Source of the DNA: Carcharhinus amblyrhynchos
Lineage: Eukaryota
Direction: 5' to 3'
Assembly: GCA_965287045.1 (NCBI GenBank)
Contig: OZ336880.1
Location: 57,908,001-57,972,000 of the forward strand
DNA length: 64,000 bases
Position numbers and translations under genes: made by a program. Positions 13,649 through 35,415 of this stretch are shown in pieces; position 1 is the stretch's first letter; every line of letters starts with the position of its first letter. The notes beneath the pieces were generated by a model, which made no database searches, was not told where the DNA came from, and saw only the letters and a program-made list of their open reading frames with translations.

Positions 13649-14359
13649 CACGGGCTTAATTGAAAACTTTTTTTAATTTTTCGCCTGCATTTGTTGACAA
13701 AATGCCATTGTGATTGTCAGACAAGAAAATGATTACTTTTAACTCAGAACAATATTCAGCTCAATGCCTTTCATTTCCTTCTCATTAATGTTTAAGTTGC
13801 AATAACAATAATATATTTACTAAAGAGCTCCTCGTTTTGTTATTGTGCTTAGGAAGCTGTCATATTTAATGAAAAGCTTATTAAACAGAAGGGAAGGCTA
13901 TTGTTAGGACTGCTCAAAACAGAAACTACCACACTCGTTCTCACTAATAGGAGTGCAGCATAATTGTGAGCAGGTTGCAATGTAAGGAAAATGTAGTGAC
14001 TACATCTAATGATCTCAGGCCATTAACTCATTGATTGTTTGGTGCTTTCAAAAATACGGAGGCCAATTTTGGCTCAGTTTTTACATGGAAATGGGATGAT
14101 AGTGCATGGAAAATGCCAGTGCTCTACTTATGGCTCCTTTTTCCCATCCAACCCGAAAGCCCCCCAACCTCTCCAAGCACTACTATACTCCATTGCCGCA
14201 AACACTGCAAGGATAAGCAATCCACCTGATCAGTCCTACCTCCTTCTCACCTCCCTCATACAGCAATACCAAGTCTTAAGTATTTTTTTCTGGGGCAGGA
14301 GACCTCCCAGTGAGTTTTCAGATTTATCTGAAGGGTTTCTTAAGTTTAAATTTGAAATC

Positions 14360-14813
14360 ATTTATTAGTGTCACAAGTAGACTTACGTTAACGCTGCGAT
14401 GAAGCTACTACAAAAATCCCCTAGTCACCGCACTCCAGCGTCTGTTCGGGTACACTGAGGGAGAATTTGGCTTGACCACTCCACCTAACCAGCACGTCTT
14501 TCAGACTGTGGGAGGAAACCAGAGCACCCAGAGGACACCCATGTAGACACGGGGGGAATGTGCAGATTCTGCACAGGCAGACACCCAAGCTGGGAATTGA
14601 ACCCAAGTCCCTGGTGCTGTGAGGCCGATAGTAGTCATGATGTGGGTATGCTGGCGTTGGACTGGCGTAAACACAGTAAAAAGTCTGACAACCGATTTAT
14701 TTGATAATATTATCAAATTATCTATTATCAAATAAATCGGTTGGACTAAAACCTGGTGTTGTCAGACTTTTTGCTGTGAGGCAGCAGTGCTAACCACTGT
14801 GCCACCGTGCCGC
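14360..14813 (-). mobile_element. HE1-head SINE with alternative 3' tail, interrupted by a Penelope-like insert
   Basis: Reverse-complement head GCAGCAGTGCTAACCACTGTGCCACCGTGCCGCC. The tail is shared with 17965, 41803 and 58478. Confidence 0.85.
14626..14771. mobile_element. Penelope-like palindromic insert
   Basis: Begins ATGATGTGG..GCTGGCGTTGGACTGG.GTAAACACAG, like 23773. Internal inverted repeat CCGATTTATTTGATAATA / TATTATCAAATAAATCGG. Flanked by duplicated TGCTGTGAGGC. Confidence 0.7.
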
Positions 14814-15639
14814 CAGCCTGATTAGGTGAAAGGATGAAGGTATCTACGTCCCATCAAATGACACCACCGGATCAATTCTGATGGAAAGAAGATGACAAAT
14901 GGCAAGTTAAGACAAATTTTTTCTTACGTAACATGTATCTTTAGGATATCATTTACTTTTACATGAAAAGTTGGGCAGGGTTTTGAGCAGTAACTACTTC
15001 TGCAAACTCTGCCTTCCTTTAAATACAACCCCCCTTGAAAAATGAAGGTTTTGATCAGGAATTGAATGATATTTTAATCATTGGTCTGCATCAGGCCACC
15101 AGAATCACACTGTGTTCTGTCTTCATAAAAAAAAAGTATGAAATGAAAAGGATCCATCAAGTTCAGTTATTTCATTCAAATGGAATCTCATGCCTCCTGC
15201 TACTTCAGCTTAAATTGAGCTGGACACAATGCAATCAATAACAATAGTTCAAAGTGCAGGCACAAGTGTAGCTTTTTGAGCCAATTGCACTTTGTCAAGG
15301 TCTCGAAGGCTCTGATACACAAGCGTGATGTTTGATTTTAACACCCCACCCTGTGCCCAAACAATTGTGGAATTTTAAGCACAAATGGTATTGAATGCAA
15401 CTCAAAGTTCCACCACCTTTTGGGCTTGTTTCACAATAAAAGCATTACACTGGAAGCAGATCGTGAACACAAAACTGGCTTCATCACTGAGGTGAATTAA
15501 TCACCATTGGAGATACCCTCTGATGCTGCTGCTTATTTGCCAGTCTTCAAGATGTTCCAAAGAATAAGTTGCAACTTCAGGGTTCAAAAACTCAAATAGA
15601 TATGTTTCCAAAGGCCCTGAATTATTTAATAAAAGCAAG

Positions 15640-15872
15640 TTTTTGCGAATGCTGGAATCTGAAACCAAAAGATAAAATGCTGGAAAATCTCAGCAGGTTT
15701 GGCAGCATCTGTAGGGAGAGAAAAGAGCTGATGTTTCAAGTTCAGGTGACCCTTTGTCAAAGATGCTGGACAGGCTTTGACAAAGGGTCATCTGGACTCA
15801 GAAAAAAACAACTCTTTTCTCTCCTTACAGATGCTGCCAGGCCTGCTGGGATTTGCCAGTGCTTCCTCATTT
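15640..15872. mobile_element. Penelope-like inverted-repeat element with hammerhead-like cores
   Basis: Arms at about 15680-15762 and 15775-15860 are reverse complements around a 12-nt spacer. Each arm reads TTGACAA-stem II-GAAA. Confidence 0.7.
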
Positions 15873-15934
15873 TGATGTTGAATTATTTTCTTTTAACTTA
15901 TTAGGGAAATAACTAAGGCAACCCATTTGAAACA

Positions 15935-16075
15935 GAAAACAAAATCAGAACACTGCTGATGTTGGAAATCTTAAATACAAACAAAAAGCGCTGGAAATAC
16001 TCAGCATGTTATGGAACATCTGTGGAGAGAAACAAAGTTAACGTTTCAGGCTTGCGACCTTTATTTCGAATTAGA
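15935..16075 (-). mobile_element. Single Penelope-like terminal repeat with a decayed hammerhead motif
   Basis: Related to 15640-15762. The minus strand keeps AGGTC..GCCT-GAAACGTT-AACT. Confidence 0.6.
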
Positions 16076-16147
16076 AAATAGTACTTTTTTACAGAGATTT
16101 TCTATAATTTAAAATCAGGCTCGTCACAGATGGTGGATTGATGGTGT

Positions 16148-16731
16148 GGCTGGAATTTTAACGGTTCAGTAATGCCAGGCTAGAAATCTTGGGAAGACTC
16201 CATCATTTGCCAGTCCTTGCCACATTTACTGGGGGACCGGCAATTAACCAGTTGCCATTGGGACTGCTTCCCTTTAAAGGTAGACCGCTTGGACTGATGG
16301 CTGCTGCTCGGACAACATCCAGAAGGGGAGGACACCTTAAAGGCTGCCATCCTCCCAACCAAGTAAGCTGGGGAGAGGGAGAGGCTAGAGTGGAGGGGGG
16401 TAGAAGAATTGGGGTCCCAAGGAAGGAAGGGGGATTTGTGAGAGCCGTTGGAAAAGAAGATGCCCTTTGTGGGCTTGAGAACACCCAAAAAGAGTAACCG
16501 TGCCCGACTGGAGGCTGCCATGTGGTAAACTCACTGATGGCAAAATGCCAGTGGTGACAAGAAGAGGTTCAACTGGGTCTGGGCAGGAAGCTCTCCATTT
16601 TCCCACCACTGTAAAATGGCATGGTGGCAGGAGACAACTGCCAATTCACCCCTATAATTGTGGTCAGTTTACACCACCCTCTCTCCACCAAGTCTCGGCC
16701 CATTCCCAGAAGGTTGATTAAAATCCAGCCC
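16148..16731. mobile_element. Harbinger-type MITE
   Basis: TIRs GGCTGGAATTTTAA and TTAAAATCCAGCCC. Confidence 0.75.
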
Positions 16732-16829
16732 AAAGATTTAAAATGCTTATTTTTCATCATAAACATTCAATTCAACGAACCAAAGACCAAATGAGCGAAT
16801 GCAATCTTACATGGCCACCTTAAAACTAT

Positions 16830-17770
16830 CAGCAAAGAAATCTACTTTTGGAATTCTCATTGAAGACCTAATCAGGGATTAAGTAGTTTGTGGAATACAT
16901 ATTGCGAGTTAGTCCACATGCAGCTGCTTTGTGGAAAAGTCTTTGGCCAGATTTCCGCAATGTCATACACCCTACTCCTGCTGCGAATTAGAACGGAGAA
17001 TTTGGCACTCAGCCGAATCTCCATTCACTGCAGCAGACCCAGAGAATCTCAGCCGTGGGCAGAGTCAGAGAATTCCAGCCTTAACATTAAAAGTGGCCAT
17101 CAATATCTGTATATTAAATGAACAATGAGAGAAACAAAGCAGAGATTTTAGGCAGGAAACTGAGGTATTCGCACCATTTCAGTCATCTGACCTATGGTAC
17201 CAGCACCCTGAACCAGCAGACCTGTGGACTCCTACAGAGCCCAGTGCAGTGCATGCTGCACCTGACAAACACACAAATGAAATGTCCCATGTTGCTAACA
17301 ATGAGGGCACTGACCACAGAAATATTGTGATCACATGATCCGGGTGTCTGAACATGCTGAACACAAGAGTCTAGGATTTTATTATCACTTAGTCTAGAAC
17401 TGACTTGTAAAGTTCAGTTTTCTCTCCAACAATAAAGGGGAGGGGAGGAGATGTGATGGGCTATACATCATTTGCTACAGCCTAATCCTGCCTCAATATA
17501 TATGTAAATCATTATGCATTGTCAATTTGTTTAATTGTATGCCATACAATGATTTGTGCAGTTGCCTCTCACTGGGTGTTCCAGCTAAACAGGAAAGATG
17601 TAGACTACATGGTTATGTGAGAAAGCAATGATGCAGCCTGACAAGAGAAGGAGTGTGGATGCTATCCCCGCGAGTGCAGGCAAAGCACAAGTGTATATAG
17701 CTGTTGAGTTTCGGAACAAACTACCTGTGTTGGAAGTCCTTGTTATCTGCGAGTTAAGCAACCCGCAACA
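16830..17770 (+). mobile_element. Decayed Gypsy 3' end: integrase C-terminus, polypurine tract 17434-17451, 3' LTR 17452-17770
   Basis: QLLCGK (cf. SPAQLLxGR) and IT*SG (cf. TRSGR). PPT AAAGGGGAGGGGAGGAGA abuts TGTGATGGG...CCCGCAACA. Confidence 0.65.
16945..17080. mobile_element. About 135-bp MITE inside the Gypsy integrase remnant
   Basis: TIRs GGCCAGATTTCC and GAGAATTCCAGCC. Confidence 0.6.
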
Positions 17771-17964
17771 TTCTACATCAAGTTAGAGCACTTAAATTTC
17801 AAGCAGGAACGTTTTTAATGATTTTAAAAACATTTCAAAAATCTAATTCCACATGAAATCGTCAAAAGATTGGACCCTACATTCCAAACAAATCTCGGAA
17901 TTCAAGTGAATTTGGAATGCCATTTGTGCCGGTTGCAAAACTTCCTATAGATATTTATTATTTA

Positions 17965-18154
17965 TTTTTATCAGTGTCTACAAGTAGGTTTACATTAACA
18001 CTGCAATGAAGTTACAGTGAAAATCCCCAAGTTGCCACATTCCGGCATCTGTTTGGGTACATTGAGGTAAATTTAGCATGGTCAATGTATCTAACCAGCA
18101 CGTCTTTCAGGTTGTGGGAGGAAACCGGAGCACCAGGTGGAAACCCACACAGAC
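17965..18154 (-). mobile_element. 5'-truncated HE1-type SINE with alternative tail
   Basis: Matches 14360-14550. Confidence 0.8.
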
Positions 18155-23769: not shown

Positions 23770-24495
23770 TGCATGATGTGGAGGTGCTGGCATTGGACTG
23801 GGGTAAACACAGCAAGAAGTCTCACAACACCAGGTTAAAGTCCAACAGGTTAATTTGGTAGCAAAATCCACTAAGTTCTGGGGCGCTGCTCGTTCGTCAG
23901 GTAAGTGGGAGTTCTGTTCACAAACAGGGCACTTAAAGACACAAACTCAATTTACTCAATGTACCACACTTTAGGAAGTACAAACAACAAAGAACAAAAC
24001 AGTCCGGGAAACAGGCCCTTTGGCCCAACGAGCCCATGCCGCCATTTTAACATTACAAGTCCCCCCTCTACCCATGACCCTTATCTATGCTTATGGCATT
24101 CCACATTGAGGGAAAACTAATTTAGGGACAATTTATTACACCAATCAGCCTATCAGTATGTGAAAGCATTAGGGAGGGTGCAGAAACAATTCACAAGGGA
24201 TCCCAGGTATAAGGAACTACAGTTCATTGTGCTAGAAACTATGATCCCTGCTCACAGAAAACAGCTCTCAGGACTCCAAGCTTTTTGGCAGTCTACTTGT
24301 TCGTGACTTTTTAATTCAATCACTTCATTTTCATCTGTTTACTCAACATAAATTGTGTTTGTGTCTTTATATGCCCTGTTTGTGAACAGAACCCCCACTT
24401 ACTTGACGAAGGAGCAGCACTCCGAAAGCTAGTGGATTTTGCTACCAAATAAACCTGTTGGACTTCAACCTGGTGTTGTGAGACTTCTTACTGTG
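23770..24495. mobile_element. Penelope-like element with inverted terminal repeats (about 23805-23955 and 24347-24497) and an 11-bp target duplication
   Basis: The arms are reverse complements. TTCAAATCCTA is duplicated at 23759-23769 and 24496-24506. Confidence 0.8.
24395..24435 (+). ncRNA. Minimal type I hammerhead ribozyme motif (partly decayed)
   Basis: ttac-(T)TGACGA-A-GGAG cagca CTCC-GAAA-GC-TA-gtgg. The mirror arm keeps CTGACGA (minus strand 23894-23900). Confidence 0.6.
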
Positions 24496-34421: not shown

Positions 34422-35415
34422 AGATCAGTGCTGGGTCCATTGTTATTTGTCACTTATATTAAGGATTTGGATGAGAATATAGGAGGCATGGTTAATAAGT
34501 TTTCAGATAACACCAAGATTGGTGGCATAGTAGACAGTGAAGAAAGTTATCTCCAAATGCAATGGGATCTTGATCAATTGGGCCAGTGGGCTGACGAATG
34601 GCAGATGGAGTCCAATTTAGAAAAATGCGAGGTGATGCATTTTGGTAGATTGAACCAAGGCAGGATTTACTCAGGTAATGGTAGGGCATTGGGGAGAGTT
34701 ACAGAACAAAGAGATCCAGGGGTACATGTTCATAGCTCCTTGAAAGTGGAGTCACAGGTGGACGAAATGATGAAGAAGGCTTTCGGCATGCTTGGTTTCA
34801 TCAGTCAGAACATTGAATACAGGAGTTCGGATGTCTTGTGAAGGTTGTACAAGACATTGGTAAGACCGCACTTGGAATACTATGCGCAGTTCTGGTCACT
34901 CTATTATAGAAAGGATATTATTAAACTAGAAAGAGTGCAGAAAAAATTTACCAGGATGCTACCAGGACTTGATAGCTTGAGTTATAAGGAGAGGTTGGAT
35001 AGACTGGGACTTTTTTCTCTGGACCGTAGGAGGCTGAGGGGTGATCTTACAGAGGTCTATAAAATAATGAGGGTCACAGATCAACTAGATAGTCAATGTC
35101 TTTTCTCAAAGGTAGGGGAGTCTAAAACTAGAGGGCATAGGTTTAAGGTGAGAGAGGAGAGATACAAAAGTGTCCAGAGAGGCAATTTCTTCCCATAGAG
35201 GGTGGCGAGTGTCTGGAACAAGCTGCCAGAGGTAGTAGTAGAGGCAGGTACAATTTTGTCTTTTAAAAAGCATTTCGATAGTTACATGGGTAAGATATGC
35301 ATAGAGGGATATGGGCCAAATGCAGGCAATTGGGATTAGCTTAGAGGTTTAAAAAAGAGGGTGGCATGGACAAGTTGGGCCAAAGGGCTGTTTCCATGCT
35401 GTAAACCTCTATGAC
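34422..35415 (+). mobile_element. CR1/HER1 LINE, 5'-truncated (RT C-terminal part and 3'UTR)
   Basis: SVLGPLLFVTYIKDLD..KFSDNTKIGG (cf. KFADDTK) and YKTLVRPHLEY..QFWS..RRRLRGDL, with stops and frameshifts. Confidence 0.95.

Follow-up and report, generated by a model that had tools for sequence, protein, structure and literature searches.

The motifs analysed here resemble the minimal hammerhead ribozymes of Penelope-like elements (PLEs), variants of which Lunse et al. in 2017 reportedly found to cleave as dimers; the tolerance of the pair between core positions 3 and 8 is said to have been addressed by Przybilski and Hammann in 2007. In several natural hammerheads C3-G8 covaries to U3-A8, and such covariants are reported as already shown to be active in vitro (Perreault et al. 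2011, PMC3088659), in passages that cover neither PLE minimal motifs nor activity in a minimal context. For PLE hammerheads, Cervera and de la Pena (2014, PMC4209133) designed a descriptor with U3-A8, which gave ~1,300 matches; their main account describes PLE hammerhead activity as low and seen in multimers only, and the U3-A8 swap as fixed in a PLE family of Schistosoma mansoni, Cercyon. Since that descriptor exists, the variant has not been overlooked in print: the U3-A8 core is already published, and its interpretation is not new. A literature search found no vertebrate U3-A8 PLE family, from sharks or other lineages; Lunse 2017, Przybilski 2007 and the PMC4209133 supplements might contain one, or have a bearing on its activity.

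On how such elements insert, Arkhipova et al. (2013, PMC3846280), in the part bearing on junctions, attribute junction palindromes to self-priming. For Poseidon of Anolis carolinensis, the sections of Frangieh et al. (2024, PMC11167929) on insertion describe two internal RT start sites that define the tail, cutting and extension of both target strands, uncleaved RNA as the main template, and a hammerhead that is protein-assisted.

The window examined in this study is a 64,000-nucleotide stretch of the Carcharhinus amblyrhynchos genome (contig OZ336880.1). It contains a 251-bp palindrome at 15628-15878, slightly larger than the 15640-15872 given in an earlier note on this DNA, and bracketed by identical 10-bp direct repeats, the left and right target-site duplications (15618-15627 and 15879-15888, the same sequence on the plus strand). 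The inverted-repeat arms are 72-80% complementary, far above chance, and folding of the entire element yields -139.8 kcal/mol (z = -14.8), a stability equalled by 0 of 200 shuffles. The palindrome represents an RT + GIY-YIG PLE that inserted head to head, truncated at the 5' end, and has since decayed. Its long arm, on the minus strand at 15628-15764, is a 5'-truncated pLTR end that opens on the first base of helix I and extends as far as the distal 3' end, and matches family copy L132 to offset +130 from position 3; the outermost ~35 nt (15628-15664, minus strand) are the PLE 'tail', present in the long arm only. The short arm (15773-15878, plus strand) is a 5'-truncated pLTR end without the tail, with an alignment that reaches offset +95. 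Between the two 5' ends lies an 8-nt junction spacer (15765-15772) resembling nearby arm sequence, which we infer to be a templated insertion. Two other repeats were noted. About 50 bp away, at 15932-16070 on the minus strand, is a PLE arm from another subfamily, older and in a worse state of decay, whose core is unreadable and in which GAAA-CG-UU and the tail side survive; at 14672-14778, an AT-rich nested inverted repeat with 21-nt arms (95-100% complementary) sits within another repeat.

Each arm holds a decayed minimal hammerhead, and re-deriving the coordinates from the sequence placed both motifs where the earlier note had put them. The plus-strand copy (15773-15813) has T15777 at position 3, A15782 at position 8, an intact stem II (15785-15799) and GAAA at 15801-15804; it is damaged by an extra A before GAAA and by the replacement of helix III, including U16.1, with an A run. 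In the minus-strand copy, a type I motif at 15726-15764, U3 is at 15760, A8 at 15755 and C17 at 15730, with GAAA-CA-TC-AGCTC downstream in the arm; here helix III has gone from CG to CA, and stems I and II carry one mismatch each. The description of these copies as decayed elsewhere thus applies to both arms, and neither copy individually carries the complete PLE minimal hammerhead core (U4 G5 A6 A9 G12 A13 A14 A15.1 U16.1 H17, with 3-8 paired). As the two motifs lie on opposite strands, any single transcript would carry one of them together with the other's complement, the two being paired in the hairpin. The hammerheads at the locus are likely inactive. An Rfam search of 14000-18000 at E <= 10 found no hammerhead family among 20 matches, returning only miRNA-hairpin matches under their gathering scores. 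Because the bare TTGANAA..GAAA motif is common, with 16 matches in the window, support for a hammerhead comes from the family context and not from the motif.

Three further observations concern hammerhead-like sequence in the window. At 24403-24432 on the plus strand, another repeat family carries a minimal hammerhead-like motif in which U3 faces G8 and helix III is GC; one C-to-T substitution within a C3-G8 family probably accounts for it. A canonical CUGAUGA...GAAA with a short possible stem II (34781-34804, minus strand) may be another decayed hammerhead, or chance. Finally, at 15774-15784 the U3-A8 core and its neighbours form an 11-nt near-palindrome characteristic of the family to which the locus belongs (subfamily A), which a C3-G8 sister subfamily lacks; it may favour annealing of cDNA ends and templated spacers.

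The parent of these arms was sought in a DNA search of the 2.92-Gb genome, which gave 3,934 candidates, 40 of them scored. Upstream of the motif, longer copies carry a pyrimidine-rich region, a GIY-YIG-like frame, a CxxxxCxxC linker and RT motifs. The longest open frame among the best 150 matches scored is 557 aa, found in copy L136 with RT motifs and the start of the GIY-YIG region; no complete pLTR-ORF-pLTR element was found among the best candidates scored. Pfam recognized RVT_1 (E 2e-4) and GIY-YIG (E 0.019, in L137) in ORF pieces, both below curated cut-offs, and neither domain in 6 shorter fragments. At E <= 1e-20 the 557-aa frame matches 256 homologs, of which the top-ranking named ones are from sharks and rays; of the 120 homologs listed many have RVT_1 and some GIY-YIG. 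Loci selected by ORF similarity bear the same arm, a pLTR with the hammerhead, downstream of the ORF, which upholds the earlier note's assignment to a Penelope-type parent; two ORF-bearing loci (L073 and L074) also have an inverted arm. The CxxxxCxxC-type Zn-finger-like linker lies between RT and EN, pointing to Neptune or Nematis; a Zn-finger-like linker is also described for Nematis PLEs in the relevant part of Craig et al. (2021, bioRxiv 2021.04.23.441226). Contigs from 4 sequencing runs (3 studies) carry the family, mostly with T at position 3, and some have loose ends at the 5' edge discussed below, although contigs cannot reveal start or expression; the sequencing-run listing contained no RNA run found to carry the family. 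Along the subfamily A arm (for example L106:2440-2605) there are three splice-acceptor-like pyrimidine-AG tracts. From the first ATG past the hammerhead, the subfamily A frame runs for 22 codons to an in-frame stop, but that of subfamily B, the sister, stays open.

The U3-A8 pair is the master state of the family and is not private. The earlier note had accepted that a CUGANGA consensus, with U3/A8 confined to this copy, would overturn its reading; in a fixed 21-nt context, however, 3,483 of 3,905 exact matches are U3/A8, 121 are U3/non-A8 and 301 non-U3. Three samples chosen independently of positions 3 and 8 agree. Among 100 listed of the 337 matches that retain the upstream region, U3 is found in 100/100 and A8 in 98/100; arms picked by ORF similarity are U-A in 37/39; and in 30 loci picked solely on sequence 3' of the cleavage site, two of them identical duplicates, 19 of the 20 arms spanning both positions are U-A and none is C-G. 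(Two loci ~800 kb apart, L326 and L327, are identical around the element and probably reflect a segmental duplication or an assembly repeat.) An origin of A8 by CpG decay, copy by copy, was rejected: positions 7-8 read CA in 33/37 arms, with no CG or TG, whereas two true CpG sites in the same arms give CG/CA/TG counts of 20/10/5 and 14/13/6. The family profile carries the complete minimal core and the helix III consensus GAAA-CG-UC that had been predicted, along with an extra base between 9 and 10.1, G10.1-C11.1, a palindromic 15.2-16.2, and a helix II of 5 bp with a 5-nt loop. For a master-like copy, the hammerhead fold is not the minimum-energy fold (p = 0.024). A literal CUGANGA search does, as anticipated, miss several thousand motifs in this genome.

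How this master arose can be read from its sister. Subfamily B has 1,611 matches, shares stem II with subfamily A, and is 71-75% identical to it in the ORF region. A hand count of the first 100 sister matches listed gave C3 in 86, with positions 7-8 reading CG in 31, TG in 25, CA in 28 and TA in 2; because this is the pattern of a decaying CG, the sister master is C3-G8. Positions 3 and 8 therefore changed together, given a sister with the same stem II and a C3-G8 master. Older relatives point to the direction of change: most of 30 loci are unreadable, and where cores can be read (for example L267, L268, L276 and L294) they are C3-G8, so U3-A8 is probably the derived state. A joint alignment of 65 rows (A1) contains 37 UA, 14 CG and 14 unpaired combinations, the unpaired rows being C-A decay products; the relatedness of the copies inflates its shuffle control (2-3 of 500). 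Covariation inside subfamily A was considered and set aside. Among the first 100 matches listed, C3-G8 occurs in 9 of 64 C3 copies, against ~2% G8 in U3 copies, but this enrichment is not independent evidence because fetched cases such as L061 belong to the sister. The covariation proposed in the earlier note thus stands as a paired switch between two sister subfamilies that happened once (n = 1), and does not extend within the family, where the two positions mostly decay as in neutral copies.

A single switch leaves room for a neutral history, in which the hammerhead was already dispensable, G8A (by CpG decay) and C3U were acquired independently, and the restored pair is a coincidence. The CpG containing G8 decays in about a third of sister copies, hammerhead mutants left Poseidon insertion of Anolis unaffected in vitro in the experiments described in PMC11167929, and the copies here derive from uncleaved RNA, all of which would fit such a relic. 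However, the 39-nt motif holds six differences between the masters (positions 3 and 8, two in loop II, H17 as C/U, and 1.1 as U-A/U-G), and all six are compatible with the fold, with invariant core bases identical in both masters; the 30 nt upstream, by contrast, differ at roughly a third of positions. Fixation of this swap in a PLE family of Schistosoma, described in the relevant part of PMC4209133, likewise argues against coincidence, and we regard the neutral history as unlikely. Selection on the pair is likely, and unproven because the event is single and began with CpG to CpA, a hotspot of mutation. In the history we favour, U3-A8 would have arisen once from C3-G8, probably when the CpG at G8 was lost and C3 then changed so as to restore the pair; it would have been kept because the 3-8 pair still mattered. 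Since the sister family keeps a standard core, the parent ribozyme is likely to have been functional, as predicted from its sequence; its cleavage would need a dimer, and probably also a protein.

Formation of the palindrome is recorded in its ends. The 3' ends of 110 copies with an intact core fall into two groups, at about +93 to +107 and +128 to +131, and exactly one long arm with a tail is present in 27/27 distinct palindromic loci, a sample picked by similarity to the window copy that disfavours short-short pairs and not long-long ones. This one-arm tail is the published PLE tail, and fits two internal RT start sites with priming of both target strands. Duplications scoring >= 8 flank 15 of the 27 loci, compared with 17 of 702 mismatched flank pairs used as a control, and vary in length. 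Spacer length varies between 18 nt and a 4-nt overlap at the self-complementary AGCT, and spacers often echo nearby sequence, a variety that suggests end joining at each insertion and would fit the joining of two cDNAs better than self-priming. Internal priming as described in PMC11167929 predicts that the template should extend beyond the tail, as it does in 5 loci (L051, L159, L160, L181 and L304). The sequence shared by these loci, 30-150 nt past the tail, includes an acceptor-like tract and an ATG and may be the true ORF start. We propose that an element protein would nick both target strands ~10 bp apart, that two cDNAs would be primed on uncleaved RNA at two internal sites ~35 nt apart, and that both would extend to the RNA 5' end and then be joined, aided by the self-complementary AGCT, yielding a palindrome with a variable spacer and a duplication.

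The same palindromes could also be taken for self-contained mini-elements resembling MITEs or retrozymes, each mobile as a whole and equipped with two active ribozymes. Similar short copies do exist in thousands, with target duplications and many palindromes among them; but spacers and 5' ends vary from copy to copy, the tail is always confined to one arm, and the same pLTR end is also found alone or joined to ORF fragments. Moreover, the motifs lie on opposite strands in hairpin pairing, and no long direct repeat, and hence no tandem repeat, was found in 14500-17000, so that we consider a unit of this kind very improbable and retain the joining of two cDNAs as the origin of the palindrome.

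This origin depends on where the template RNA begins. In the 110 copies, a set chosen on an intact core, 36 end exactly at -4, the A of AGCT and first base of helix I; 44 others end within the next four bases, 2 at -5 and 5 at -9 to -11, and 23 are long. The edge at -4 is less prominent in a core-independent sample, with 5 of 30 copies ending there and 8/30 inside the motif (+5 to +24), and in subfamily B, with 4 of 28 (hand count), which counts against a start at helix I; only 12 short arms occur among the 55 non-targeted arms examined for 5' ends, a small sample. In subfamily A a TATAAA starts 30 nt before the A of AGCT, and this spacing is found in 5/5 long subfamily B copies examined, despite a different intervening sequence. 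Copying from cleaved RNA was ruled out as the main route. The C preceding the cleavage site is absent in 262 of the 4,840 exact matches beginning there, and in the first 100 of these listed about two thirds are simple C-to-T changes (hand count); of 30 fetched loci 2 truly begin at the cleavage site, both via AGCT microhomology with the other arm. A sharp edge at helix I, the TATA motif 30 nt before it and the near absence of starts at the cleavage site therefore make it likely that the hammerhead opens the transcript and that uncleaved RNA is copied; transcription would start at the A of AGCU, 30 nt past the pLTR TATA motif, so that helix I would open the RNA. A putative TATA box is also reported for a rotifer pLTR in the corresponding part of Arkhipova et al. 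(2013, PMC3846280), whereas Penelope of D. virilis has an internal promoter lacking a TATA box (PMC2377424), which counts against a TATA-driven start.

The sharp edge might instead be a 3' splice site (pyrimidine tract, AG|CT), with the copies made from spliced RNA. The sequence upstream of the edge is a good splice acceptor too, and the letters before it are mostly AG and resemble exon ends. At -5, a hand count (n=38) gave G 11, A 13, C 12 and T 2; T is rare immediately before the edge although the flanks are AT-rich. These counts contain no clear excess of G (11/38), and so no clear cap-derived extra G at the edge, a point against a transcription start there. A precedent for splicing exists in D. 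virilis, where an intron ends at the 5' end of helix I, according to the part of PMC4209133 that treats it. Splicing is, however, at odds with the short copies, which have no shared upstream exon, with the 30-nt TATA spacing kept in two subfamilies, and with the extra sequence between duplication and edge, which is mostly 0-17 nt and has a locally templated look (by eye; many of the 110 copies have no clear duplication). We judge it unlikely beside a transcription start at helix I.

If in these vertebrate PLEs a capped, TATA-driven transcript does begin with the hammerhead as its first 39 nt, cleavage would remove only a 35-nt capped leader. It could then act as a self-decapping switch that silences surplus RNA on an encounter between two molecules, or between RNA and protein, leaving retrotransposition to the uncleaved RNA. 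The two sister masters, C3-G8 and U3-A8, would amount to a rescue experiment done by nature, showing that the switch stayed under selection, and self-complementarity of the first four bases would account for the head-to-head palindromes. We offer this combined proposal as a speculation, one that is more probably wrong than right. What we hold with considerable confidence, from sequence comparison, is the broader account: a decayed head-to-head pair of 5'-truncated ends of an RT + GIY-YIG PLE with a U3-A8 minimal-hammerhead master, likely functional in the parent and likely inactive here, formed by the mechanism proposed above. The locus itself is an ordinary dead insertion. Its family provides a near-identical pair of C3-G8 and U3-A8 ribozymes, useful for asking whether PLE minimal hammerheads are selected for cleavage, and the predicted start at helix I, if true, would explain the abundance of short palindromes in shark-like genomes.

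Set beside the PLE hammerheads described in the available parts of PMC4209133, which include Schistosoma mansoni Cercyon, the shark family has in common a type I minimal motif, U3-A8 covariation, a 4-bp helix I, the extra base 9/10.1, G10.1-C11.1 and a palindromic 15.2-16.2, as well as motifs on opposite strands and close together. Helix II has 5 bp in the shark and 7-8 bp in the S. mansoni families, whose longer helix does not belong to the core definition. Unlike S. mansoni, the host is a vertebrate, with at least 3,483 exact copies and a near-identical C3-G8 sister subfamily alongside. Poseidon of Anolis, in the portion of PMC11167929 on its insertion, shares the two-start-site tail, double-strand priming and uncleaved template, but is C3-G8 and belongs to the Poseidon clade, whereas the shark family is U3-A8 with a Zn-finger-like linker. 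Non-LTR retrozymes are head-to-tail tandem hammerhead units, while the arms here are inverted; MITEs have symmetric TIRs and a fixed-length duplication, while here the ends are asymmetric in 27/27 loci, the duplication varies and the parent encodes RT. There is a further correspondence with EN+ PLE insertions as described in sections of bioRxiv 2021.04.23.441226 and PMC3846280: a head-to-head inverted 5'-truncated copy, a 30-40 nt tail at one end, 8-10 bp duplications, microhomology junctions and a putative pLTR TATA box. Both arms here differ from those insertions in being only ~100-135 nt long and stopping at a fixed point at helix I. The family nevertheless has the features that define EN+ PLEs, namely RT with GIY-YIG, a downstream hammerhead-bearing pLTR, an inverted truncated copy with a tail, and a short, variable duplication.
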